Notes under the pieces: generated by a model | Databases searched by the model: none | What the model saw: the letters and a program-made list of their open reading frames with translations, nothing else | What the model was told of the DNA's origin: nothing | Part shown: positions 12,516 through 61,847 of the stretch, piece by piece | Position numbering within the stretch: the first letter of the stretch is position 1 | How the letters are laid out: the number at the start of each line of letters is the position of its first letter | Assembly: GCA_965205015.1 (NCBI GenBank) | Contig: OZ242029.1 | Location: 800,001 to 864,000 of the forward strand | Source of the DNA: Candidatus Poribacteria bacterium | GTDB taxonomy: Bacteria; Poribacteria; WGA-4E; WGA-3G | Length of the DNA stretch: 64,000 nt | Direction: 5' to 3' | Position numbers and translations under genes: made by a program

Positions 12516-14216
12516 CTACGTCTGCCCAAGAACCTTCAGAAACGCTTCATCGTCTTTTACATCCGAAAATTCAGGGGTCTCAAGGAAAGTCGGGTAGTAT
12601 GTATCCTGATTATAAGGATCTACCACATAGTACGCCTGAGCGGACTTTAAATGATGTAAAGTTTTTTCTCTGTCCTTTTCAGAAGCCCAGATGCTTGCAG
12701 CCAGCTGGAAGTGTCCATAATGGTTGTTATCTTCCAAATCAATGGCGATTTGTAGGAAACATCTCGCCTCGTTATACTTCTTAGACCACAACAGACAACA
12801 ACCGATATCGTGTGCTAACCACATAAGGTCGTCGAGATTTACAGGTTGACCCGCATCCCGTTTCTTCAACTCTCCTTCCATATAGGCACTCACTTCCGTA
12901 AAAATTCGATCGAAACGTCCCCAATCTCCTTGTTTACCGTATATGAGAAGTCGACTTTCTTTCGCAATCAACCAGAATTGAAAATAATGCTCTGAACCGG
13001 GTTCGTTGTTAGCACGTTCCAACTTTTCTATCTCAAGGAAGGCTTCATCGAACCGGTCGTTGCATCGTAATACATCTATTCCGGCCTGCAGGAATTCACA
13101 ACGCCTGAAGTAACTCACGCCTGGGTTCTCTAAGCGTTCAGAGGCGTCATTATATAGCTGAATCCAGTCATCAATACGACCTTCCGCCGCCCAACATCCG
13201 GATCCCCCCAGATTAGCACCAGCCTCCAACACATATTTATCCGGCAAGTGCTGGCACGTCCAACAGTAAAGCCGAGAGTGTTCCTCAATAGCTGCTCGAT
13301 TTCTTCCAAGAGAAGCGAGACTATCGACTAACCTGTCATGCGCCCAGAAACGCTCCGTATCACCCAGCGCGTCCTCCATATACCTACGGAGTAGAGGTAC
13401 CCGCTTTTCCATGCCGAGTTTGCCCATATACGGGTATATCTCATCGGCAGCAAGATGCACCAATTCAGGCGTGATTTCACCCTTAAGTGCGTCTTCAATC
13501 TCGTTACAGGCTTCTGTAAGAATACCCACTCTGGATGCAGGATCAGATTTCACTTTTTCCATGAATAAATTGAACTTACTGCGAACTTCTTCTAATTGTG
13601 TCATGACATTCTCCTTCAGATTATCTGATAGTTGTAGATGACCAAAAAATTCTGGATTCAAGAGTTCTTGCTCTGTTCGCAAACGCTTTCGCGCCCGTTG
13701 GAGTCGACTCGTAATTGTGTTCACCGACACCCCCATGAATTTGCCGATCTCTTTCGTTGACATTTCGTCCAGATAGAAGAGGGTTACAACTGTGCGTTCC
13801 TTCTCCGGCAGTTTTTCTAAAAGTCTTTTCACAAGTTCATGGTAATGCTCGGTTCTCTCTGTCATTCGCTGTTCTGATATATGATGCGTATAAGAGGACT
13901 GCTCGATTTCTTCTACAGGTGTATCCTCCAGGGATTGCATCATAGACTTTTGGCTTCGCATCCAATCAATGCAAAGCCGATTTGCGATAACATGGAGCCA
14001 CCCCGCAAATTGATCGGGATTCTTGAGCGTCGGAAGTTTTCTGTATGCCCTCAGGAAGGTATCTTGCATAATCTCTTCCGCATGGTGAAAATCTTGGATC
14101 TTCCGCCATGCCAGTGCATGAACGCTTTTTTGGTACTTTTCGACCAAGATGCTAAACGCAGCGTCGTCCCCAGATAAAATTTTGCGAATCAATTGAACAT
14201 CGTCTTCTCTTTCCAC
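12516..14216 (-). CDS. ECF sigma-70 factor fused to TPR-like C-terminal domain
   Basis: Region 2 (GDDAAF..LVEKYQ, AEEIMQDTF, FAGWL), region 4 (KEIGKFMGVSVNTITSRLQRARKRL), ~360 aa helical extension ending FSDVKDDEAF; GTG start with SD GAGGAGG. Confidence 0.9.
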   Translation of the reverse strand: MEREDDVQLIRKILSGDDAAFSILVEKYQKSVHALAWRKIQDFHHAEEIMQDTFLRAYRKLPTLKNPDQFAGWLHVIANRLCIDWMRSQKSMMQSLEDTPVEEIEQSSYTHHISEQRMTERTEHYHELVKRLLEKLPEKERTVVTLFYLDEMSTKEIGKFMGVSVNTITSRLQRARKRLRTEQELLNPEFFGHLQLSDNLKENVMTQLEEVRSKFNLFMEKVKSDPASRVGILTEACNEIEDALKGEITPELVHLAADEIYPYMGKLGMEKRVPLLRRYMEDALGDTERFWAHDRLVDSLASLGRNRAAIEEHSRLYCWTCQHLPDKYVLEAGANLGGSGCWAAEGRIDDWIQLYNDASERLENPGVSYFRRCEFLQAGIDVLRCNDRFDEAFLEIEKLERANNEPGSEHYFQFWLIAKESRLLIYGKQGDWGRFDRIFTEVSAYMEGELKKRDAGQPVNLDDLMWLAHDIGCCLLWSKKYNEARCFLQIAIDLEDNNHYGHFQLAASIWASEKDREKTLHHLKSAQAYYVVDPYNQDTYYPTFLETPEFSDVKDDEAFLKVLGQT

Positions 14217-17614: not shown

Positions 17615-19333
17615 CTACTTCTGCCCGAGAACCTTCAGAAACTCTGGGTCATCCTTTACATCCGAAAATTCCGGAGTTTTAAGGAAAGACGGGTAGTAGC
17701 TATCCATATAATTGTAGGAACTAACTATATAATCGCTCTGAGCGATCTTCAAATGGTGTAAAGTCTTCTCTCGGTTTTTCTCAGATGCCCAGACGCTCAC
17801 AGCAAGCATGAAGTGATTATAATCGTTGTAATTTCCCAAATCGATGGCGAGTTGTAGCAAACGTTTCGCTTCATCATACCTCTTCGCCCATACCAGACAA
17901 CAACCGATATTATGAGCAGTACAAACAAGCTCATAGATATTTACGGGATAACCGGCACTCCGTTTTTCGACTTCTCCTTCAATAAACGTCCTTGTATCCA
18001 TCAAGACTCGATCGAAACGATCCCAATCTCCCTGTTTGCTATACACCCGAAGTCGATTCTCTCTTATCGCCAACCAGAATCGAAAATAACTCCGCCAACC
18101 CGGTTCGCCATTGGCACGTTCCAACTTTTCTATCTCAAGAAGTGCCGCATCTAACCTATCGTTCCTTATTAAGATATCTGATCCAAATTGCAGAAAATCG
18201 CAACGACTGTACTGACTCACTTCAGGGTTCTCTAAGCGTTCAGATGCCTCATTGTAAAGTTGAATCCAGTCATCAATACGGCCTTCCGCCGCCCAACATC
18301 CAGCAGTGTTCGGATTAGAAACAATCCGCAACACATATTTTTCTGAGTGCTTGCATGCCCAACGGTAAAGACGCGTCTGTTCCTCAATAGCTTCTTGATT
18401 TCTCCGAAGAAAAGCGAGGCTTTTGACTAACCTGTCATGTGCCCAGGAACGCTCCGTATCATCTGGAGTGTCATCCATATACTTCCGGAGTAGAGGGAGC
18501 CGTTTTTCCATGCCGAGACTGCCCATATACGGGTATATCTTATCAACCACAAGACGCACCAATTCAGGCGTAATTTCACCCTTAAGTGCATCTTCAATCT
18601 CGTTGGCGGCTTCCTTAAGAATATCCTCCCTTGATGCAGGGTCAGATTTCACTTTTTCCATGAATGCATCGAATTTGCTGCGAAGTTGCTCTAATTGATT
18701 CATAATATTCTCCTCCAGATTATCTGATAACGGTAAATGACCAAAGAATTCTTGATCCAAGAGTTCCGGATCTGTTTGTAAACGTTTTCGCGCCCGGTGG
18801 AGCCGACTCGCAATTGTGTTTACCGGCACGCCCAAAAATTTGCCGATCTCTTTCGTCGGCATTTCGTCAAGATAGTAGAGTGTTACGACCGTGCGTTCAT
18901 TTTCTGGCAGTTTTTCTAAAAGCTGTTGGACAAGATCACGGCAATACTCTGTTCTCTCCGTCATCCGCTGTTCTGACATGTGGTGTGTATAAGAGGATTC
19001 CTCAATTTCTTCCAAACGTGTGCCTTCCAAAGATTGCATCGCAGGCTTGTGCTTCTGTATCCTCTTTTGCTTTCGCATCCAATCAATGCAAAGCCGATTG
19101 GCGATGACATAGAGCCACCCAGCAAATTGATCGGGATTTTTAAGCGTCGAGAGTTTTTTGTATGCCTGAAGGAAGACTTCTTGCATAATATCCTCAGCGT
19201 AGTGATAATCGCCGATCTTCCGCCATACAAGGGTATGAACGCTCTTTCGGTACCTTTCGACCAAGATGCCAAACGCAGCGTCGTCCCCGGATAAAATTTT
19301 GCGAATCAGTTGAACATCGCTTTCTTTTTCCAC
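17615..19333 (-). CDS. ECF sigma-70 factor fused to TPR-like domain (paralog of 12516-14216)
   Basis: Regions 2 and 4 intact; GTG 19333 with SD GGAGG preferred over ATG 19411. Confidence 0.9.
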   Translation of the reverse strand: MEKESDVQLIRKILSGDDAAFGILVERYRKSVHTLVWRKIGDYHYAEDIMQEVFLQAYKKLSTLKNPDQFAGWLYVIANRLCIDWMRKQKRIQKHKPAMQSLEGTRLEEIEESSYTHHMSEQRMTERTEYCRDLVQQLLEKLPENERTVVTLYYLDEMPTKEIGKFLGVPVNTIASRLHRARKRLQTDPELLDQEFFGHLPLSDNLEENIMNQLEQLRSKFDAFMEKVKSDPASREDILKEAANEIEDALKGEITPELVRLVVDKIYPYMGSLGMEKRLPLLRKYMDDTPDDTERSWAHDRLVKSLAFLRRNQEAIEEQTRLYRWACKHSEKYVLRIVSNPNTAGCWAAEGRIDDWIQLYNEASERLENPEVSQYSRCDFLQFGSDILIRNDRLDAALLEIEKLERANGEPGWRSYFRFWLAIRENRLRVYSKQGDWDRFDRVLMDTRTFIEGEVEKRSAGYPVNIYELVCTAHNIGCCLVWAKRYDEAKRLLQLAIDLGNYNDYNHFMLAVSVWASEKNREKTLHHLKIAQSDYIVSSYNYMDSYYPSFLKTPEFSDVKDDPEFLKVLGQK

Positions 19334-19451
19334 GAAATTTCCTCCGAATAAATAGATTGGACCCTGTATACCCTCGCCAAAGCGTTTAATCAAATACCAA
19401 GTTTTATGCAATTAAGCAATATGAGGTAGTTTACACCTTCTATATATTAAA

Positions 19452-23454: not shown

Positions 23455-25665
23455 TCATGGCGATTCTGACAAATGCTCATCAAACCAAGAAAGCATCCGT
23501 TGCCAATAATCAGCCACATTCGGATAACGCCATGATGTGACTTGCGAATGTCCCTCACCTTCATAACGCGCTAAAACGGCCTTTTTTCCCAGTCTACGCA
23601 AGCCAGAGAACATTTCTCCTGCCTGTGGGACAGCAGGGACACCATCCAAGGCACCAACAACTAACAACAGCGGCGTCTCCACCTTGTCCAGAAAAAAGAT
23701 AGGGGAGTTTTCGATGTATCGGTCCTGGAACTCCCAGAGCGACCCACCCATTTTGCCCTGTCCTTTTTCTGCCCAATCGATCCACTGGCTATCTCCCTCT
23801 TCCGTCAAATGCCCATAGAAACTAATGAGATTCCCCACCGGCGCACTACTGACAGCTGCACTAAACCTTGATGTTTGTGTAATCAGAGCGTTGACGCAGT
23901 AACCTCCGTAACTGTGCCCCATTATTCCTAAACGGTTGGGATCGGCAATTCCCATATCAATTAGCGTATCTATACCAGAGAGCACCATCTCCGTCAACTC
24001 TCGGACCGGCGCGTTGGTTTCCATTGGGGTATCGGGAAGAAAGACGACGTAATCTTGCTTCGTCAGCAGAAAATTGCCCCCATAGCGATCTGTGCCGAAA
24101 TCGTTAAATTGATACGAGAGCAAAGAACCCCCGTAGACCTCCGTAATTAATGGATAGTGTTTGCCCTCTACATAGTCTGGTGGGAGCAGCAAGGCACCTC
24201 TAAGGTCTTTTCCAGAAGGTGTCTGCCAAGTGACGAGTTGAGAAGTCCCAAGTCGTTCTGTTTCAATATCTGGGTTCAGTCGAGTGAGTTGCTGTGGATT
24301 TTGAAAGTCGGTGTCCGCTACCCACACATCGGGCGCGTGATTTACGTCCTCAATGCTGTAGAAAATATCCCCCGTTTGAGGTGCAACATCCATGTTTCTA
24401 CCCATAGGATTATAATTACGCTTTTCCTGAACCAACCGTGTGATCTCGCGCGTTTTCAGATTGACGCGATGAAAACCGTGCTGTTCACTGTTTGAATGGA
24501 CGGTATGCATGTATATTGACTCGGTGCAGTCTGGCGACCAAACAGTGTCTGCTTCCGCTTGCCGAACAATTCGAACAACACGTCCATCAAATCCGTCTGT
24601 CAATTTTTCAATAGCGCGATCAGCGATCGTAATTCGCCAGAGATCCCCCCGGGCAACACAGAATAGGTGTTTACTATCAGAACTCCACAAAGGCGGATGC
24701 GAACTATTTGTTAGTTCAATATCGGTGTCTTGGGTGAGATTTAGTTGGCTACCGTCAACTGTCGAAATGAGGAAAAGCTCATCTTTTGCAGCCTTATTCT
24801 CTGTCGGAAACGCAACGTAGCGACCATCTGGCGACCAAGTAAACAAACGTCCCCATCCAGATTTCAGCGAGTCAGCAAGTAATTTCGGAGGTCCTCCATT
24901 TAGCGACGAAAGATAGAGTTCGTACAGTAGTTGAGCGTTACTTTCTAACCCTTGAAAACTCGTAAACGCCGCGGTCGCTCCATCAGGGGCAACACGGATA
25001 CCAGATGGATAGAGTCCCTGCGCTAACGTTTCGACTTCTCCTGTATCAACCCTTATCATCCCAAGGTCTGCGCGATATCGCGCGTCAAACCACGAAGTCC
25101 GCCGCGGTCGGAATTCATTTTCCGGTTGTCCAGCAATAGGACTCGCAAAGAGTGTTACCGATGCCTTTTCCTTGTCTGGAGGTGCTTCTTCATCTGTCTC
25201 CGCTTCTGAATGCAACCTAACGATAATACGTGTTCCATCAGGTGTCCAGAGCGGTGGCTGCGCCCTTGACAAAAACGGCTGAATCCTGACATCACTCGCG
25301 AGTCGTGGGACATCTTCGCCGACCTCCCATATCCACAATTGGGCTGTTTTATGCTTATCCGAATAAAAAGCCAATCTTTTTCCATCCGGAGACCAGGCAG
25401 GTCTATAACTTGTGCCCCAATTCGGCGTGAGATTTCGCGATTCGCCACTCTGAACATCGATGAGCCAAATTTCACTTCCTTCTTGCAAGCCAGCGATACC
25501 CGTTGGAAGATATGTTTTATCTCCGGCTCCTACGCGTTTTCTGAAATAACTTTGAACAGCAACAGCAAGTTGTGTTCCATCTGGTGAAACAGCAATTGGA
25601 TCAAATAGCGTGAGGAGTTCTATCGAGAGAATGTCCTCAATACCGCTAAAAAGGTCAGTGTGCAT
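23455..25665 (-). CDS. S9-family prolyl oligopeptidase / acylaminoacyl peptidase
   Basis: WSPDG propeller repeats, GHSYGG nucleophile, GALD, YEGEGH; ATG 25665 with SD AGGAGG. Confidence 0.92.
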   Translation of the reverse strand: MHTDLFSGIEDILSIELLTLFDPIAVSPDGTQLAVAVQSYFRKRVGAGDKTYLPTGIAGLQEGSEIWLIDVQSGESRNLTPNWGTSYRPAWSPDGKRLAFYSDKHKTAQLWIWEVGEDVPRLASDVRIQPFLSRAQPPLWTPDGTRIIVRLHSEAETDEEAPPDKEKASVTLFASPIAGQPENEFRPRRTSWFDARYRADLGMIRVDTGEVETLAQGLYPSGIRVAPDGATAAFTSFQGLESNAQLLYELYLSSLNGGPPKLLADSLKSGWGRLFTWSPDGRYVAFPTENKAAKDELFLISTVDGSQLNLTQDTDIELTNSSHPPLWSSDSKHLFCVARGDLWRITIADRAIEKLTDGFDGRVVRIVRQAEADTVWSPDCTESIYMHTVHSNSEQHGFHRVNLKTREITRLVQEKRNYNPMGRNMDVAPQTGDIFYSIEDVNHAPDVWVADTDFQNPQQLTRLNPDIETERLGTSQLVTWQTPSGKDLRGALLLPPDYVEGKHYPLITEVYGGSLLSYQFNDFGTDRYGGNFLLTKQDYVVFLPDTPMETNAPVRELTEMVLSGIDTLIDMGIADPNRLGIMGHSYGGYCVNALITQTSRFSAAVSSAPVGNLISFYGHLTEEGDSQWIDWAEKGQGKMGGSLWEFQDRYIENSPIFFLDKVETPLLLVVGALDGVPAVPQAGEMFSGLRRLGKKAVLARYEGEGHSQVTSWRYPNVADYWQRMLSWFDEHLSESP

Positions 25666-25675
25666 TATTTTCCTC

Positions 25676-26935
25676 CTATCTTGGGTCATCACACGCTTGA
25701 CTTTGTTTGCTGCCATCACCGATGCGGTTAGAACGAAATCCCGAGATGCTTCTTTCAACACTTCGGCGCAGCATCTCATCGCTGAGATGGAACGCCTCGC
25801 GTATTGTTATTGACAGTTTCTGCTGCTGCTCTATCGAATCGAGCAATTGCTGGTTTTGCACGACAACGACAGAATCAGCATTCTCTTGAATTTCCTGTAG
25901 CGAACGTTTCGCTTGTTCGGCGCGACGTTGACCCTCAAAGTTGAATGGACAGGTCACAACCCCTACAGCCAAAGCACCTTGCTCTCGGGCGAGAGAGGCG
26001 ATCAGAGGCGAAGCACCCGCTCCTGTTCCGCCCCCCATACCGGCGATAACGAAGACAATATCCGCGTCCGCAACGATGGCGTTGAGCGTTTCCCTGTCCT
26101 CCTCAGCCGCTTTTCTACCTATCTCTGGGTTCGCGCCACATCCAAGTCCTTGGGTAGTCTTAGCACCGATCTGCACCGGTGTTGCTTCAGGGTGCTTGTC
26201 AAGTGCTTGCTGGTCTGTATTCACGGCATAAAATTCAATGTCTGTCAAACCGTCTTCAATCATTCGTTTAACGGCGTTCCCGCCCGCGCTACCGACTCCA
26301 ATAACCTTGATTATAGTTTCGGTGCGTTTGGATTCTTCTCGTTTGGATGACATAGTTCTCCCTCTTTCAGGTTCGACACCGAACTCCCTGCGTAAGAGTT
26401 CACGTGTCTGTCTTAATTTGGTCTTGATTGTGCCTATCGCCAATCCGAGTTCAGTGTGGATCTCCTTGACGCTCCACAATTCCAGATAGTATAGGACCGC
26501 AACGCGGCGCACTTTATCTGGAAGGTGATGCACTGCTTCCCTTATAGCGTCGTAGTGTTCCGTTTCCCTGAAGCGTGCGACTGCATCTTGGTCGATACGA
26601 TCCGTCAGATCCGCATAACTATAAGGAATGTCGTTTCCGGAACGATCGGCAGCAGCATAGTACCGCTTGCAAGCGTTGTAAGCAATGCGATGCAGCCACC
26701 CCCCAAAACTCTCAACGCTCCGCAGTCCACTGATATTTTCCCAGACGGCTCTCCAGACATCCATGAGAATTTCTTCGGCATCGCGGGGTTGTCTCGAATG
26801 TGCGATAATCACTTTCCAGATGCGTCGACTATAACGCGACATCAGTTCTGCAAACGCTAATTCATCACCGGCTTGTGTAAGCCCAATGAGTTCTTCATCT
26901 GTTAGAATGGCGTGCGTTGATAGATCGTATCGCAT
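25676..26935 (-). CDS. ECF sigma-70 factor fused to truncated FtsZ GTPase domain
   Basis: aa 1-185 sigma regions 2/4; aa 195-419 IKVIGVGSAGGNAV, AVNTD, GLGCGANPEIG, AGMGGGTGAG, PFNFEG; no T7 loop or C-terminal domain. Confidence 0.9.
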   Translation of the reverse strand: MRYDLSTHAILTDEELIGLTQAGDELAFAELMSRYSRRIWKVIIAHSRQPRDAEEILMDVWRAVWENISGLRSVESFGGWLHRIAYNACKRYYAAADRSGNDIPYSYADLTDRIDQDAVARFRETEHYDAIREAVHHLPDKVRRVAVLYYLELWSVKEIHTELGLAIGTIKTKLRQTRELLRREFGVEPERGRTMSSKREESKRTETIIKVIGVGSAGGNAVKRMIEDGLTDIEFYAVNTDQQALDKHPEATPVQIGAKTTQGLGCGANPEIGRKAAEEDRETLNAIVADADIVFVIAGMGGGTGAGASPLIASLAREQGALAVGVVTCPFNFEGQRRAEQAKRSLQEIQENADSVVVVQNQQLLDSIEQQQKLSITIREAFHLSDEMLRRSVERSISGFRSNRIGDGSKQSQACDDPR

Positions 26936-27037
26936 AAACAGTTCCCAATTGATTTTAACCTAAAGAGTGGACTTTTTCGGAAGGTGGTTTAAAAAAAGAA
27001 AAATCGCTGTACTTTTCGCTACGCCTCTCACAGGGAC

Positions 27038-28489
27038 CTATACCTCCGAACGCAGGAAGACGAGGAAGGCTCCTGAAAGCGACACACCGAGCAGTAAAAT
27101 GAGTAACAGAATATCGACTATAGCGGGATTGAGCGTCTCCTGAAAAGACAACTTATCCTCAAACATTGGGATAGTCTCTGGTAAGACGGACCTTTCCGAC
27201 ATGCCTTTCCGGACACCCACGAAATGAAGGCTCTCTGGATCCGCCCGATCCATTTCAACGATGAAATTTCGGAAGTGTCGGATATGAAGGCGGCAGTGTT
27301 CTAAGAATTGCAAATGCCGATTAAAGCCTGTGCCTGCCATGGATTCAAGGGCATATTGGACAACCGCTGCAGGAGAGCATCGGGTTATCTGTCTTGCATG
27401 CAGGACTTGCGCACTTTGCGCAGCGAGATGCTGGCGACTCAGCCGCTCCCGAATCTCCATGTCTTTGTTAACGAACGCCTGTTGGATCTCCAATTCTGAA
27501 GTGTCTACCCCCGCAACTTCCTCCTGAGAGGTTTCTGCGGATTGACGGCGTTCTCTTAAAGTCTCCCTTTTATCCAGGAAATCGCTCCGAATTTGGTCGA
27601 AGGCGGTCCCCTTTGTCCTCTGAAATTGATGGTGCGTTTGAATCGGAGGCATCCATCTTGTGGAGAGTGTGCCGAGGGTTGACGGCATAAACACCACGAC
27701 AGTCACCCAGATGAGCAACAGGACAACCAGACTTAACCGACTTTCCCGAGTCATCGCCGAGATAATAAGCCCAATTGCGACGAAGATACCAGCATAGCAA
27801 GAAGCAATCAGCACGATCAGTCCTAAACGCCCCCAGTCTGCGCCGCTGAGCTGCGTCCAACTCTCGGTAGAAATGATGGCGAGATTGAATAACACGGCAC
27901 AATAGAAGGCAATGAGGACCGTGATGAGGGAGCCAAGGAACTTACCCATTAATAGAGTCGGGCGCGAAATCGAATTGGCAAGACACAGCCGCAGCGTCCC
28001 GCGTTCTCGTTCTCCGGAGAGCGCGTCAAAGGTAAACAGGAGCGGCATGAAAGAGAGCAGATAGGTCACAATAAAGACCCAATCGATCCCCGTGGCAGTG
28101 GGACGAAGATTGCTAATCGCCTCCATATTCAGACGTGGAACGCCCATCGACCAAATATAGGCAAGCCCGTATAACCGCCAGAAACCACCACTCACGCTTT
28201 CGTCCGGTAGTAAGGCGTCCCCGCCATCGGCGATGAAGGCGAGCGATGCGGGGCGTTTGTAAAGCTTACCGGGTCCCTTGTGTAGCAGTTCATACAACTG
28301 CGTTCGGGATTTCAATTCGGTCTGAGATGCGTTAACCTTCTCGGAATACTTTCGAACCCGTTCCGGATGGGTTCGAAGATGCACAACGGCATTGGTTACC
28401 ATTAATGCTACGAGGATGAACGTGGTTAAGGCAAAGCGGAGACTCGTGAGGTGGTCTAAAAGTTCGCGTCTGACAACATGCCAAATCAT
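27038..28489 (-). CDS. ABC-2 type permease (type B)
   Basis: WHVVRREL, FTFDALSGERERGTLRL; paralog of 14530-15936. Confidence 0.88.
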   Translation of the reverse strand: MIWHVVRRELLDHLTSLRFALTTFILVALMVTNAVVHLRTHPERVRKYSEKVNASQTELKSRTQLYELLHKGPGKLYKRPASLAFIADGGDALLPDESVSGGFWRLYGLAYIWSMGVPRLNMEAISNLRPTATGIDWVFIVTYLLSFMPLLFTFDALSGERERGTLRLCLANSISRPTLLMGKFLGSLITVLIAFYCAVLFNLAIISTESWTQLSGADWGRLGLIVLIASCYAGIFVAIGLIISAMTRESRLSLVVLLLIWVTVVVFMPSTLGTLSTRWMPPIQTHHQFQRTKGTAFDQIRSDFLDKRETLRERRQSAETSQEEVAGVDTSELEIQQAFVNKDMEIRERLSRQHLAAQSAQVLHARQITRCSPAAVVQYALESMAGTGFNRHLQFLEHCRLHIRHFRNFIVEMDRADPESLHFVGVRKGMSERSVLPETIPMFEDKLSFQETLNPAIVDILLLILLLGVSLSGAFLVFLRSEV

Positions 28490-30266: not shown

Positions 30267-32042
30267 TTAGGACTTCAAGAGCATCGGCATGATGAGGTGG
30301 ATATGTCCTTCCTCACCAACCGGCTTAACAATCACAGGATCCAACGCGCTCGAGAACTCCAATGCCAAAGACGCCGTTCCAATGTGCGTGAGCGCCTCTA
30401 TCAGCATCCGAGCATCGAGACCGACACGGATACTTCCAGTGCTGGACACCACTGCTAAGGTTTCCTGCTGCTCATCTATCTCAGAATCCCTCGGCGAAAT
30501 CCGAATCCGTTGTTCATCTATCTCTAAACAGACCGTCGGCGAAATCCGAATCTGTTGTTCATCTATCTCTAAACAGAGAGCAGGGCATTTCGGATCCGAA
30601 AATGCTGAAACCTGACGTGTTGCACGCAAAATCGGCGCTTTCTGCACAACTGTACGCATCTGAGGAGACTTTGGAAAGAGTTTCTCATACTTCGGATATT
30701 CACCGTCTACCAACTGCGCCGTCAACGTGGTTCGCTCATCCGCGAAAAGAATCTGGTTCGCAACGCGTGAAACCCGTACCTCCAAGGAATCAGCAAACGT
30801 TCGTTCAATATCTTTGACGGCTTTGAGCGGGACGATAAACCCATCGTTATCCTCAGACAACCTTAAGGGTTCACACCGTGCGATGGCAATCTGCTTGCCG
30901 TCGCATCCAACGACTTCGGTCCTGTCCTCAAGCAGGTTAAAATAGAGCCCGTTTAGAAAAGTCCGCCGGACTTTCTCCGTGGACGCAGCACATTCGGTTT
31001 TGTGGAGGATCGACCGCAGGATCTCTCCATCAATCGCAAATGCTCCCGGGTCAACAGAAGGGAGTTGTGGAAATTCCTCATCCGCAAGCCCGACGATTTT
31101 GTAAACGTCATCTCCAGAAGTGATTCTAACCCGACCGTCCGCTGTCTTTGTCACGTCTATCGGTTTCTCCGCGGGCCACGCTTTAACGATATCCCCTAAT
31201 TTTTGGGCGGGGACAGTGATCGCTCCCGCTTCTTTGACTGTCCCTTCAACCTTCATTCTGATGCCAATTTCCGTGTCCATCGCCATGCATTCAATCGTGC
31301 TTCCTTCCGCACGGATGAGAACGTTTGAGGGAATAGGTGAGGTATCCTGCCCACTCGTGACACGCTGCAGCATTTGTAAAGAAGTTAAAAGCGCATCCCT
31401 TTCAAAAGTTAATTTCATTCCAAAACCCCTATTCAAATATATTTGGGCGCGACGTTCGGGTTCAATTGTGAGGTCTAAGGCTTCCTGAATCATGAATTCA
31501 TACTGCTTTAACTGTTGTCGCGCACGTCGAAGCCGACTTTTAATCGTGTTTTCTGACACACCTAAAAAGTTACTTATTTCTGTGTAGGTCATCCCCTCAA
31601 GGTAGTGAAGCGTGATAGTTGTCCGATTGCTCTCCTTCAACCTCGCGAGCAGCTTTTCGACCACGTCGCGCCGCGCTTCAGCGAAGGTCCTCGCGTGTTC
31701 TGTCGCGATATACTGGGAATACGCCTCTGTCTCTACTTCAGAGATGTCAGTGTTTTCCAGCGGCTCAGTGTGCCGCTGGTTTTTTCGGAGCCAAGCGATA
31801 CAGAGACGATCCGCAATCACATAAACCCACCGTAGAAACCGCGTCGGATCTTCCAAGGTCTCTAATTTGTGATAGACTCGCAGGAAGGTTTCCTGCGTAA
31901 TATCTTCGGCGATATGGAAATCCCCAATTTTCCGCCATGCGAGCGCGTGAACCTGTTTCTGGTACTTTCTAACCAACCTTGAAAAGGCAGTTTCATCACC
32001 GGTGAGGACTCGTTGGATCAATGCAGCATCGTCGTTTCTCAT
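30267..32042 (-). CDS. ECF sigma-70 factor fused to DNA polymerase III beta clamp (DnaN)
   Basis: aa 1-190 sigma; aa 209-591 MKLTFERDALL, PAQKLGDIVK, ADEEFP, FLNGLYF, LVDGEYPKY, LIMPM. Confidence 0.9.
   Translation of the reverse strand: MRNDDAALIQRVLTGDETAFSRLVRKYQKQVHALAWRKIGDFHIAEDITQETFLRVYHKLETLEDPTRFLRWVYVIADRLCIAWLRKNQRHTEPLENTDISEVETEAYSQYIATEHARTFAEARRDVVEKLLARLKESNRTTITLHYLEGMTYTEISNFLGVSENTIKSRLRRARQQLKQYEFMIQEALDLTIEPERRAQIYLNRGFGMKLTFERDALLTSLQMLQRVTSGQDTSPIPSNVLIRAEGSTIECMAMDTEIGIRMKVEGTVKEAGAITVPAQKLGDIVKAWPAEKPIDVTKTADGRVRITSGDDVYKIVGLADEEFPQLPSVDPGAFAIDGEILRSILHKTECAASTEKVRRTFLNGLYFNLLEDRTEVVGCDGKQIAIARCEPLRLSEDNDGFIVPLKAVKDIERTFADSLEVRVSRVANQILFADERTTLTAQLVDGEYPKYEKLFPKSPQMRTVVQKAPILRATRQVSAFSDPKCPALCLEIDEQQIRISPTVCLEIDEQRIRISPRDSEIDEQQETLAVVSSTGSIRVGLDARMLIEALTHIGTASLALEFSSALDPVIVKPVGEEGHIHLIMPMLLKS
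30491..30580. repeat. 45-bp in-frame tandem duplication within the DnaN domain
   Basis: tcggcgaaatccgaatc(c/t)gttgttcatctatctctaaacaga x2; CLEIDEQxIRISP repeated. Confidence 0.9.
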
Positions 32043-58439: not shown

Positions 58440-58709
58440 AAAGGATGAGGATAAACCGAATTATGCAAAACAGACCCAGCATTAAATTGCTTGCGCCTCA
58501 ACAGAAACGTCCGTTCGGTGCTGTAGGTTCACCAAAGCGTGATACCGTTAGCACAAGACTAACAAGCATTCCTACCTGCCCCCCCCCACTTCACACCCGT
58601 TAAGCGCGCCTTTACAGAAAACTTCATACAACTCGAACAACGGTTGCGGCTGCCTCCGTTTTTCCGCGCCTGCATGCCCTTCGGCGTATGTAAGGGATTT
58701 TTTTATCCT

Positions 58710-61700
58710 ATGAAGACAAAACTTTTCCCTCTGTTTCTCATAGGTGTCCTTCTCCTTCTCGTCCCGCTGCGTCAGGCGAGCTCTCAGAACGTGAACGTTC
58801 CTGATGCCAATTTAAGAGCGGCAATAGAGAGCGCGCTCTCTCTCAGTGCAGGTGACCCTATCACAGAAACAGCGATGGCGGGGTTGACAACACTGACAGC
58901 AAGCGGCGTGGGCGTGGAAGACCTCACCGGATTGGAATACGCGACAGGGCTACAGCATTTGGATCTCTCTTCCAACCCAATTACGGACATCAGCATCCTT
59001 ACACAAACCAACTTTCCGAATCTGAAGTCCTTAGACATAACGGATACATGGGTTCGGGATTTCTCGGCAATTGATGGAGAATATTGGACCAGGAAGTTTA
59101 ATGAGGATCAATCTAACAACAGACTATATATATGCAGTAATGCCTTAGAAAATTGGGATTACGATGGTAACAATGATGGCGATCCCCTGGGTAAAATTGA
59201 TCTGCAGACTTTTGATTGGATTGATCCGGCGGACTGGACGGCGAGCGATAGGGAGAGGATCAAGGAGCAACTCGAAAAACCTACCTGTGCGCCTGTGTTT
59301 ACACTGACCGGGGACGACACATCCGTTAGGTTAGTGGTCGATGCCGATGCAGACCTGCTGGGAACCAGAGGGACCGTAACCTACGTCTACCGTTATCGGA
59401 AGAGTGGTGAGAGCTGGCCCGACACGAGTACGGATACATTGACCCCTCTGTGGACAGGTGGTTTTCCTCATGCTACTCCACCGGGTGAAGACATGGAACC
59501 AAACTATCAAGGTGTTATTGAGCCCACACAGGTTGGCGAGGGCGGGCCCGAATATGCCGCTGACATCACGGGACTTGATCCGAGTGCCGTATACCATTTC
59601 CAAGTGTTCGGTTCCGTTTTCGCTCCGGGCAGCCCGAATCGTCAGATCTATCCACCCGGGAGTGAAGTAAAATGCTGGTCTACATCAGACCAATCAGTCG
59701 TAGACTGTCCGGAGGACCCGCCCCCCACGACAAGCATCCCTCACGGACTGACGGTACTGACGGTGACGTTTGCGGACTACCCTGAAGAGAAACCAGTTGA
59801 TGAATTGACGCTCACGATCAGATTCTCCGAACCCGTCATCGGTTTCGAGAAAGAGGACATCACGGTAGAGACAGAACTCACCAGCGGGAAAGGGGACGCA
59901 ACCGTGACAGACTTGACCCCCGAAACACCAATACACCCCGATAGACCCGACCCTGACCCCATACAGACCTACACCGCAACCGTGGCACTCCCCGACCGCG
60001 CAAGAGGCACCGTGACACTCATCGTCCGAGCAGATGCCGCAACCAACCCAACGGAGACGAGAGGTCCCGCTTCAGATACCCCCTCCGACCCCATCGAGTT
60101 CGGACGCAGACGTGTGATCGTCTGTCCACCATCTGTCGTGCCTATGGAGACAGTCATCTTCAACGAGTTTCGAAATGCTGAAAACGATACACACGACTGG
60201 ATCGAACTGAAAAACATCTCCGATGAAGACGTCTCTCTCGCCGAATGGGAGATCAGTCTTGTCGTCCCGCACGCCATCAGTCCGGCGGCACCGCAACAGG
60301 AAATCTTCGCAATGGATCGGGAGGTCGTCGCCTTTGGAGACTATACACTCCCCGCAGGGGGTATCCTGCTGATCGTCAATACCCACCCCAGTGAGACGGA
60401 TCTGATACGCGGGCAGGACATCGAAAATCCCAACCGCAACCCCGATCTCCTCCCCCACTATCTCATCGCACCGGAGATGAAGTTGCCGAGTACCCCGTAT
60501 CTGATCATCCTCCGGAGTGTGCGCGATAAGAACGGTCAACACGAAGGCTTTGAAGACCTCGCAGGCGATTACCACAAAGACGATGTCAACTACGCTACCA
60601 ACATCTGGCCCCTGCTCTGTACCCCTGTCTATACCGGCACAGAGGCACGGTTCACCGTAGGCGACATCTATCAGCGGGTCATGGTGCCAAAGTTTTCGTC
60701 AAGAACCCTGGACACCACGCCACAGCCGGAGAAACGCGGCTACCTGGAGGGTGCCTGGATCTTGAGCGACTATCACAGCGGGTTAGGCTATGACCCCGAG
60801 GCACCCCCCGAAAAGAGTCTCGGCACGCCGGGGTATCCGCTGCCGGGACAACCGACTGAAAAGGGATGGGGAAACATCAGTTTTTCTGAGGTGATGTATG
60901 CGACGAACGATAACGGAGGACTCTCGCAGTGGATAGAACTCTATAACAACACCTCCGAGATCGTGGACCTCACGGATTGGGAGCTCATGATTGAGGCACG
61001 CGACAGCAAAACCGTCCGACGCTGGACATCGCTTCGATTCAAACCGCTACACATCAGACCGAACGCAACCGTGCTACTGGTGGGGCGGAACGCCCGAACC
61101 TCAGGGAACATCCCTGCCGATCGGATTTACGATCTCTACCGTCGCAACATTGCGGCGTTTCGGCGACTCGGCGAGGGTGCGAACCGATTCCTCGGATGGG
61201 AGGGGTTTGCGCTGCGGTTGTTCTCCCCCGACGGCACTTTGGTGGATGTGGCGGGGAACCTCGATGGACGACAAACGCACGATAAACCGAAGTGGGAGTT
61301 GCCCGACGGGTGGACGGAAACCGGGACGCGTACCTCGTTGATCCGGGGGTATGATGCGCGTGTGCCACGGTTAGGGACGCTGTCGGGCAGTTTCGTACGG
61401 GCGGCGGATACAGCGTTGCTCAAGGGATATTCGTATTGGGGACTTCCGAACGATAATGGGACCCCGGGGTATCGGCGGGGGAGTCCGTTGCCTGTAACGC
61501 TGTCGAGTGTGCGTGCGGATCGTGCCGAGGGTGGGGTTGTAGTGAACTGGACGACAGCATCGGAGATGGAGAACGCCGGGTTTCATGTGCTGCGAAGTCA
61601 ACACCGAGCGTCAGGGTTCCTACGCGTGTCTCCGAGCCTGATTGCGGGTGCCGGGACGACGGCGGAGCGACAGAATTATATCTATCGAGATACCACGGTA

Positions 61701-61847
61701 CAACCGAATGTCCCCTATTACTACCGGATAGAAGAGGTCTCGTTATCGGGGGAACGTCGGGGGGTGGCGACTGTGCGGCTACGCGGGCACGTTTCAGCAG
61801 CGAATAAGCTGCTTTGGAAATGGGCGGATGTCAAAACCGAGAAGTAA
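58710..61847 (+). CDS. Secreted protein with internalin-like LRR, Ig/FN3-like and two lamin-tail-like domains
   Basis: Signal peptide; VPDANLRAAI, LTGLEYAT.L..LDLSSN; FSEPV.GF; IFNEF..WIELKN and SFSEVMY..QWIELYN; LPVTLS..WTTASE..NAGF. Confidence 0.75.
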   Translation: MKTKLFPLFLIGVLLLLVPLRQASSQNVNVPDANLRAAIESALSLSAGDPITETAMAGLTTLTASGVGVEDLTGLEYATGLQHLDLSSNPITDISILTQTNFPNLKSLDITDTWVRDFSAIDGEYWTRKFNEDQSNNRLYICSNALENWDYDGNNDGDPLGKIDLQTFDWIDPADWTASDRERIKEQLEKPTCAPVFTLTGDDTSVRLVVDADADLLGTRGTVTYVYRYRKSGESWPDTSTDTLTPLWTGGFPHATPPGEDMEPNYQGVIEPTQVGEGGPEYAADITGLDPSAVYHFQVFGSVFAPGSPNRQIYPPGSEVKCWSTSDQSVVDCPEDPPPTTSIPHGLTVLTVTFADYPEEKPVDELTLTIRFSEPVIGFEKEDITVETELTSGKGDATVTDLTPETPIHPDRPDPDPIQTYTATVALPDRARGTVTLIVRADAATNPTETRGPASDTPSDPIEFGRRRVIVCPPSVVPMETVIFNEFRNAENDTHDWIELKNISDEDVSLAEWEISLVVPHAISPAAPQQEIFAMDREVVAFGDYTLPAGGILLIVNTHPSETDLIRGQDIENPNRNPDLLPHYLIAPEMKLPSTPYLIILRSVRDKNGQHEGFEDLAGDYHKDDVNYATNIWPLLCTPVYTGTEARFTVGDIYQRVMVPKFSSRTLDTTPQPEKRGYLEGAWILSDYHSGLGYDPEAPPEKSLGTPGYPLPGQPTEKGWGNISFSEVMYATNDNGGLSQWIELYNNTSEIVDLTDWELMIEARDSKTVRRWTSLRFKPLHIRPNATVLLVGRNARTSGNIPADRIYDLYRRNIAAFRRLGEGANRFLGWEGFALRLFSPDGTLVDVAGNLDGRQTHDKPKWELPDGWTETGTRTSLIRGYDARVPRLGTLSGSFVRAADTALLKGYSYWGLPNDNGTPGYRRGSPLPVTLSSVRADRAEGGVVVNWTTASEMENAGFHVLRSQHRASGFLRVSPSLIAGAGTTAERQNYIYRDTTVQPNVPYYYRIEEVSLSGERRGVATVRLRGHVSAANKLLWKWADVKTEK

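Follow-up and report, generated by a model that had tools for sequence, protein, structure and literature searches.

A 64,000-nucleotide (nt) stretch from the genome of a sponge symbiont, a Candidatus Poribacteria bacterium (positions 800,001 to 864,000 of contig OZ242029.1, assembly GCA_965205015.1; this whole stretch is referred to as the window) carries on its minus strand an open reading frame (ORF) at 25676..26935 that encodes 419 amino acids (aa) followed by a TAG stop codon. This ORF is a real gene, in which a sigma factor of the extracytoplasmic function (ECF) type is joined to an FtsZ GTPase domain that ends in helix H7 (here referred to as the sigma-FtsZN fusion). Its sigma part comprises region 2 (aa 31-98, 26642..26845; PF04542 Sigma70_r2, 37.4 bits against a cut-off of 24; helices with predicted local distance difference test (pLDDT) values of 84-92) and region 4 (aa 129-182, 26390..26551; PF08281 and PF04545; pLDDT 88-94), of which Sigma70_r4_2 (PF08281) is matched over aa 129-180 with 32 bits against a cut-off of 25.7. 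No region 1.1 or region 3 is reported by Pfam, and the gap between the two matches spans only about 30 residues (aa 99-128). The NCBIfam model TIGR02937 for ECF-type sigma-70 factors is matched with 71 bits (cut-off 42.9), and SigW matches the sigma part with an E-value of 1.3e-14. The C-terminal extension past region 4 is 225 aa long and contains the FtsZ N-terminal GTPase domain (aa 205-398, 25742..26323; pLDDT mostly 86-97) and, after H7, a short variable tail (aa 399-419, 25679..25741; pLDDT below 50); all these features lie on the minus strand.

The tubulin/FtsZ GTPase domain PF00091 is matched over aa 209-368 with 153.5 bits against a cut-off of 33, and the nucleotide-binding motifs are present as T1 GVGSAGGNA, T2 NTD, T3 GLGCGANPEIG, T4 GGGTGAG, T5 PFNFEG, and T6 N361, followed by H7 at aa 378-405. 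Solved FtsZ chains align with residues 208 to 394-398 at roughly 50% identity and stop within H7, at a point that corresponds to residue ~197-201 of Staphylococcus aureus FtsZ. In the same way, the ftsZ model TIGR00065 is matched only over positions 7-200 of 353, with 239.7 bits, which is under its whole-FtsZ equivalog cut-off of 295.2. Native Poribacteria FtsZ continues past H7 with EINVDFADV (the T7 loop), the C-terminal domain, a long linker, and a tail ending in DWEIPAFLR, and in the alignment the fusion stops about 10 residues short of that loop. Aligned with native FtsZ, the fusion lacks the T7 synergy loop (NxDxxD; NVDFAD in the native protein) and has no counterpart of the C-domain, linker, or C-terminal tail, and Pfam gives no match to FtsZ_C (PF12327) in the fusion protein. 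A tblastn search of the window with the native C-domain found no remnant in any frame (best E-value 1.8, elsewhere), and the end of the fusion is therefore not a frameshift.

These results bear out a preliminary description of the locus, made from the letters alone, which had stated that the T1-T5 motifs are present and that similarity ends after H7: every string that it quoted (GVGSAGGN, NTD, GCGANP, GGGTGAG, PFNFEG, and AFHLSDEMLRRSVE) is found in the 419-aa translation, and the alignments with chains from the PDB stop at 394-398. Its further statement that the T7 loop, the C-terminal domain, and the FtsA-binding peptide are missing agrees with the absent FtsZ_C match, the alignment with native FtsZ, and the empty tblastn search. 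Since the bottom half and the T7 loop are missing and the pocket and H7 are kept, the domain can offer at most the GTP-bearing top interface, i.e., a single polymer interface, as had been proposed. From this, the preliminary description derived three candidate functions, namely, a filament cap, a tether of the sigma factor to the Z-ring, and a reporter of GTP/GDP levels; its interpretation is supported only in part, by the anatomy of the domain. In the AlphaFold2 model of the full-length protein (mean pLDDT 80; predicted template modeling score 0.50), the sigma2, sigma4, and FtsZ-type domains are well folded, and the linkers at aa 99-114 and 190-204 have pLDDT values below 50. The modeled FtsZ part superimposes on solved FtsZ N-domains with a root mean square deviation of 1.3-2.0 Å over ~185-193 columns.

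The truncated architecture is widespread in the phylum. A junction query composed of sigma4, the linker, and FtsZ T1-T2 was used on a phylum sample of 175 genomes (Candidatus Poribacteria by record titles), with genomes counted by hand among the matches listed. In about 75 of the 175, open frames of 386-464 aa match this query over its whole length; roughly 70 genomes have weak single matches only, consistent with native FtsZ alone. Open frames of at least 554 aa with a matched junction occur, again among the matches listed, in some 60-65 genomes. All of the best 120 database matches are 382-419 aa long, share the same Pfam pair, and are 75-94% identical to the fusion, and the few that are named are sigma-70 family factors of Candidatus Poribacteria. 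Thirteen orthologs end 1-19 residues past a conserved SVERSISEF, with an unconserved tail, and in a scan of species-representative genomes the truncated form of about 400 aa was present in 49 of the 79 loci kept. The preliminary description had asked whether homologs are cut at the same point and had held that a recent truncation would speak against it. The orthologs in the ~75 genomes among the matches listed end there as well, and the full-length forms that do exist make up a separate, older paralog family (sigma-FtsZ and sigma-FtsZ-DnaE), so that the objection of a recent truncation fails. A 36%-identical sigma-FtsZ protein on a 2-kb contig (P0144) may be either an independent truncated fusion or a frameshifted full-length one, and a locus first taken for a 37%-identical sigma-FtsZ (L066) was rejected, as it is actually a sigma-WD40 gene.

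Both halves of the fusion are under purifying selection, with median pairwise ratios of nonsynonymous to synonymous substitution rates (dN/dS) of 0.14 (sigma part) and 0.16 (FtsZ half). Little or no variation is seen across 59 truncated-class rows at the residues of T1, T4, T5, and T6 that contact the nucleotide or at the F and D of H7, and in the full-length fused paralogs T3 and T5 are degenerate and T7 has decayed too. Two length differences set the truncated class apart from native FtsZ, namely, a conserved insertion of 4 residues in the loop ahead of H7 and one additional residue within H7; the helix also contains more charged residues than its native counterpart.

Sequence comparison identifies the FtsZ half as a paralog of the native FtsZ of the cell. 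In each of the three complete genomes that were searched, a canonical FtsZ (430-446 aa; open frames of 434-465 aa) is encoded next to ftsA, some 49-59 kb away from the fusion, and a canonical DnaE gene and a pair of DnaN genes are present as well. Native Poribacteria FtsZ and the fused domain have the unusual T1 loop GVGGAGGNAV in common, and the fused and native N-domains of the same genome are 63-66% identical. A tree of N-domains places the fused copies as the sister group of native Poribacteria FtsZ with a Shimodaira-Hasegawa-like approximate likelihood ratio (SH-aLRT) support of 95; in this tree the truncated class forms a single clade (SH-aLRT 98), and the full-length fused forms stand beside it (82). 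Stand-alone genes for the FtsZ N-domain (210-212 aa) were also observed, at L035:11557-12189 (+) and on seven contigs (P0134); they begin with the Met of the fused module and an MSS/MIS linker, and one of them lies directly downstream of a sigma-FtsZN gene.

The sigma part belongs to a clade, S1, whose members are 53-65% identical over residues 1-200 and differ in their C-terminal modules. Besides the truncated FtsZ, these modules are a full FtsZ (551-595 aa), FtsZ plus DnaE (1365-1743 aa), part of DnaN, the PHP domain of DnaE, and WD40 propellers. Fusions of the sigma-FtsZ-DnaE type are present in many genomes. Loci of this family include L091:6056-11287 (+), L090:4102-8199 (-), L092:5277-6962 (+), and L104:1899-3554 (-); the DnaE part has PHP, polymerase, finger, and HHH domains, and a canonical DnaE of 1184-1189 aa coexists with the fusion. 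In some genomes, sigma-FtsZ versions of 551-561 aa are cut at or just before the start of the PHP domain. Most sigma paralogs carry WD40 or TPR-like modules. This set of sigma fusions to paralogs of cell-cycle proteins, with a shared promoter and a conserved internal Shine-Dalgarno (SD)-ATG element, is hitherto undescribed. A 706-aa DnaN-FtsZ fusion without a sigma part occurs in 3 of the 175 genomes (L107:1498-3618 (-) in G070, and also in G068 and G069); its FtsZ part has degenerate T1, T4, and T7 motifs, and a gene for a sigma-54-type activator lies downstream.

In the window's fusion, the junction element (26351..26364, minus strand) lies in the flexible linker and consists of an SD-like GAGGGAG (26358-26364) and the ATG of Met195 (26351-26353), a putative internal start. 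It is kept in orthologs even where residues change. In 85 of 85 distinct S1-clade fusions a junction Met stands about 15 residues past sigma4, and in FtsZ modules this Met lies 15 residues before IKVIGVG, at the very position where native FtsZ begins. Pairing with the anti-SD sequence at or below -6 kcal/mol in the 16 nt before the junction Met was found in 94% of the 85 genes, which are related so that their counts are not independent, compared with 6% of 725 other internal ATGs and 6% of ORF starts. For the window's fusion the pairing energy is -8.5 kcal/mol at the junction versus -4.2 kcal/mol at the sigma start. In 78% of the genes, the junction SD is within the strongest quarter of its own synonymous recodings, and the synonymous substitution rate is 0.47 in the linker versus ~1.0 in the flanks. 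A second sigma clade also has a junction SD-Met, namely, Met209 of a sigma-DnaN fusion, at which the DnaN match begins and ahead of which stands an SD-like GGAG, and Met205/237 of two paralogs with helical C-termini, where the SD pairing is -9.3 and -8.8 kcal/mol. This pattern suggests that the junction SD-ATG is a kept internal start, which would give a free FtsZ half beside the fusion.

Upstream of the gene, a putative ECF-like promoter element, TTAAACC-N18-CTCTTTA (26961..26992, minus strand), follows a T run and has its end 26 nt ahead of the ATG. The consensus upstream of orthologs is TTTTTTAAACC-N18-CTCT(T/A)(T/A)A, about 26 nt before the ATG, and among the matches listed its footprint persists next to different upstream genes. 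The -35 element of the AAC type and the -10 element of the TCT type resemble ECF promoters. Within the window, the site at 26961-26992 is the only exact match. Three complete genomes together contain 11 exact matches versus 0 for a reversed-pattern control; 8 of the 11 are located 13-42 nt upstream of S1 sigma-fusion ORFs, and the remaining 3 have no ORF of at least 60 aa within 150 nt. Within the loci scanned, the exact motif precedes 44 of 53 S1 ORFs shorter than 450 aa, 5 of 6 sigma-FtsZ(-DnaE) ORFs, and 19 of 25 sigma-WD40 ORFs. Because ECF sigmas usually regulate themselves, we infer that the S1 sigmas read this motif; cross-regulation among S1 paralogs is equally possible, because all of them share it. 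Between 23000 and 27300, scans for sigma-70-type promoters (5 found versus 5.0 expected) and for terminators (4 found versus 4.1 expected) were at chance level. At G001:C1:3687458-3687489 (L094/L097), in a complete genome, a second exact copy of the motif is located ~1 kb upstream of the sigma-FtsZN gene with no ORF of at least 60 aa behind it, and the intervening sequence differs from other loci and may be an insertion. At L038 (G003:C1 ~5507000-5512400), in another complete genome, two sigma-FtsZN genes lie ~4 kb apart, each with its own promoter motif; their products (403 and 439 aa) share 74% and 70% identity with the fusion in the window.

The fusion is part of a ~40-kb island of genes on the minus strand (~7400-47300), which includes the window's four sigma fusions, all on this one strand. 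Directly downstream lies a gene of the S9 prolyl-oligopeptidase family (23455..25665, minus strand; Peptidase_S9 and PD40), which starts 11 nt past the fusion stop and has its AGGAGG (25672-25677) overlapping the stop codon TAG. Because of this overlap, the peptidase is probably co-transcribed with the fusion; no terminator-like site was found between the two genes. The peptidase follows the fusion in 10 of the 49 truncated-form loci, and a CBM9/DUF5916 or MacB-type gene does so in most others. Next among the sigma fusions is a sigma factor joined to a complete beta clamp (30267-32042, minus strand), with all three DnaN domains (TIGR00663, 193.8 bits); it has 16 orthologs of 568-590 aa with the same junction. 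The window's copy contains a 45-nt tandem duplication (30491-30577; 1.9 copies, 97% match) inside the third clamp domain. The other two are 70%-identical ECF sigma fusions of the second clade (17615-19411 and 12516-14216, minus strand), whose sigma part is 48% identical to that of sigma-DnaN and whose helical C-terminus of ~380 aa has no sequence match in Pfam or the PDB. Further island genes encode five ABC half-transporters/ATPases, two MacB/FtsX-type permeases, four ABC-2/DUF3526 permeases, two DUF5694 proteins, two CBM9/DUF5916 proteins, and the one S9 peptidase. ATP synthase genes border the island at one end and housekeeping genes (tyrosyl-tRNA synthetase, class II ribonucleotide reductase) at the other, and the same kinds of genes recur around orthologs in shuffled order. 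Pfam found no anti-sigma domain among the 26 window ORFs scanned, an exact-match search of the window found no copy of the promoter motif ahead of its transporter genes, and PADLOC, run on 10 island proteins, returned only generic helix-turn-helix, LolE, and ABC-ATPase similarities and no defense family.

Relatives of the gene are also found in RNA libraries. In sponge and marine metatranscriptomes from two studies, contigs with 90-95% relatives were present in three of four runs; one contig, of a 91% relative, is unbroken across the sigma and FtsZ parts, and the span 25737-27052 is covered by one contig without interruption. Two contigs from different runs of one study end at 26940 and 26942, ends that are not readable as a transcript start, and a third extends to 27052.

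As described in the available text of PMC8999054, ECF sigmas without anti-sigmas commonly use C-terminal extensions as sensors and form an established class. The reading that we tentatively favor casts the FtsZ half as an input domain of this kind, which would tie the sigma factor to the pool of free FtsZ bottom faces, with the free half as a competitor and possibly a capper. According to the available text of 10.1101/2020.02.25.965095, FtsZ subunits bring GTP with their top face and join a filament at its bottom, GTP hydrolysis needs T7/H8 residues of the subunit above, and bottom-face mutants of FtsZ block division. With an intact top face and no bottom face, the half would bind only the native T7 face and could not be extended. 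In the mechanism envisaged, the FtsZ half would stand in for an anti-sigma factor: loaded with GTP, it would dock via its top face only on the T7 (bottom) face of native FtsZ, either on a monomer or on a growing filament end, and the assembly state of FtsZ would decide whether the sigma factor is held off RNA polymerase or released. The T7 loop of native FtsZ might then hydrolyze the half's GTP and reset the contact. The sigma factor would drive its own promoter, the mRNA giving the fusion and, from Met195, a larger amount of free FtsZ half, a would-be competitor for these sites and a possible filament capper; the output would be the co-transcribed envelope, peptidase, and export genes.

Several observations weigh against this proposal. 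The same sigma clade, promoter, and junction occur with WD40, DnaN, and DnaE modules, and the architecture therefore does not need FtsZ-specific chemistry. The 4-residue insertion and the extra H7 residue could alter or abolish the top-face contact. The AlphaFold2 full-length model predicts no contact between the sigma part and the FtsZ half and no confident arrangement of the domains. The promoter motif is common to all paralogs, which weakens the case for self-regulation by the window's sigma factor, and in the three complete genomes its exact matches stand almost only before the sigma-fusion genes themselves. The strong junction SD is partly a by-product of an R/G/E-rich peptide (recoded mean -6.4 versus -8.9 kcal/mol observed) and was counted over related genes. 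The RNA-library contigs are weak evidence of expression in sponge and marine metatranscriptomes, because contigs cannot show transcript starts and DNA carry-over is possible. When the FtsZ half (aa 196-405) was modeled in complex with native Poribacteria FtsZ (aa 10-330) and GTP, the scores were 0.23 and 0.18 against a mark of 0.32; this prediction, made without controls, speaks neither for nor against binding.

Among the rival explanations, the one that survives best, unlikely as it is, makes the gene a regulated division inhibitor: the free half from Met195 would be the main product, capping the filament bottom end at sub-stoichiometric amounts, and the sigma-tethered copy would only set capper expression in an autoregulatory loop. 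The junction SD, which in the window pairs much more strongly than that of the sigma start (-8.5 versus -4.2 kcal/mol), and the greater frequency of strong pairing at junctions than at ORF starts (94% versus 6%, 85 genes) fit this explanation, as do the stand-alone FtsZ-half genes and the near restriction of the exact promoter to these genes, by which the module itself may be the output; that bottom-face-defective FtsZ blocks division (10.1101/2020.02.25.965095, available text) also agrees with it. However, use of the internal start is itself a prediction from sequence, both halves are equally constrained, the same junction is found on WD40 and TPR-like modules, which are not cappers, and a capper in positive feedback would be hazardous without some brake.

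It is also improbable that the half is a pure nucleotide sensor, reporting GTP/GDP and thereby the growth state to the sigma factor by a conformational change and without FtsZ contact, in the way that ECF41 and ECF238 sense ligands with their C-terminal extensions. In favor are the near invariance of the pocket residues, the stability that bound GTP would have in a protein without a T7 loop in cis, and the precedent of ligand-driven extensions (PMC8999054, available text). Yet the AlphaFold2 model has no sigma-domain contact by which a change could be relayed, and the sister modules DnaN and WD40 bind no nucleotide. Moreover, FtsZ binds GTP far below cellular concentrations, and occupancy would therefore not track the GTP pool unless the affinity had dropped.

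Similarly doubtful is a role as target mimic, in which sigma-fused copies of FtsZ, beta clamp, and DNA polymerase III alpha would bind inhibitors of these targets (natural products, toxins, or phage proteins) and turn on the neighboring export and peptidase genes. The fused modules are paralogs of three essential cell-cycle proteins whose canonical copies persist, the four sigma fusions of the window lie within a ~40-kb island of exporters, permeases, and an S9 peptidase, and this mixed neighborhood recurs in other genomes. On the other hand, no inhibitor is known, most paralogs carry WD40 or TPR-like modules that are not drug targets, PADLOC finds only generic ABC/HTH similarity and no defense family, and the promoter motif is absent ahead of the window's transporter genes. 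In an extended and no more probable form of this explanation, the genes would encode 'bait' sigmas: the sigma part, which has no stop codon, ends in an SD-ATG followed by a copy of essential machinery, and each gene would make a free and a sigma-tethered bait (FtsZ half, FtsZ, beta clamp, or polymerase III alpha). The binding of a natural product from the sponge community, a toxin, or a phage protein to the bait would switch the sigma factor and induce the export/peptidase island, a step held to be just as doubtful. If true, bacteria would have an equivalent of the integrated decoys known from plant immune receptors.

Less probable again is a passive or scaffold module, serving solubility, oligomerization, or localization or being a decaying relic of a sigma-FtsZ-DnaE ancestor: the decay of T3, T5, and T7 in the full-length paralogs and the lack of a predicted interdomain contact would agree with it, but the dN/dS of 0.16 in the FtsZ half, the nearly invariant pocket residues in 59 rows, and the precise domain end point conserved in ~75 genomes among the matches listed argue otherwise. 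An artefact, either a chimeric assembly or a full-length gene that was recently truncated or frameshifted, can be dismissed as exceedingly improbable: no observation speaks in its favor, the same architecture occurs in complete chromosomes and many independent assemblies, no C-domain remnant exists in any frame, and the RNA-library contig of a 91% relative is unbroken.

The fusion resembles the ECF sigmas with C-terminal extensions in having a sigma2-sigma4 core, no anti-sigma nearby, and an extension of at least 200 aa that is thought to sense, and the WD40-bearing paralogs of the S1 clade resemble ECF57 (PMC8999054, available text). It differs from them in that its extension is half of a cytoskeletal GTPase that stems from the host's own FtsZ, and in the conserved junction SD-ATG, which is not a described feature of those groups in the portion of the source available. 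ECF sigmas with fused sensor domains are known, and a piece of the division cytoskeleton as sensor is unreported in what was found: full-text literature searches, which did not cover the ECF classification supplements that list fused domains, returned no description of a sigma-FtsZ fusion, and the main text of the ECF re-classification (PMC7826278; supplements not covered) contains no occurrence of FtsZ, polymerase III, or Poribacteria. With FtsZ (TIGR00065), the fusion shares the N-terminal GTPase domain and all T1-T6 and H7 nucleotide contacts; it differs in the missing T7 loop, PF12327, linker, and FtsA-binding peptide, in the 4-residue insertion, and in its position behind a sigma factor. 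Like the bottom-end cappers and sequesterers represented by MciZ-FtsZ complexes and bottom-face mutants (10.1101/2020.02.25.965095, available text), the half could block growth at the bottom. MciZ and SulA are unrelated small proteins on the FtsZ bottom face, whereas the candidate capper here is an FtsZ top half inside a sigma gene. In late transcription of phage T4, the sliding clamp gp45 acts with the sigma-like gp55 and gp33 through non-covalent contact with a phage clamp, which is a precedent for coupling a sigma factor to a replication protein and is relevant to sigma-DnaN and sigma-FtsZ-DnaE; in Poribacteria, by contrast, paralogs of cellular proteins are covalently fused.

If the half does dock on native FtsZ, as in the proposal favored here, a sigma factor would be wired directly to Z-ring assembly, and the domain would be a natural top-face-only FtsZ of a kind otherwise made by mutation for studies of treadmilling polarity. 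Taken together, the FtsZ, DnaN, and DnaE fusions, the shared promoter, and the junction SD-ATG point to an unrecognized way of building one-component regulators, and may also indicate nested two-product genes.

Elsewhere in the window, on the plus strand, a 1067-aa ORF (58644-61847) encodes leucine-rich repeats together with a lamin tail domain.

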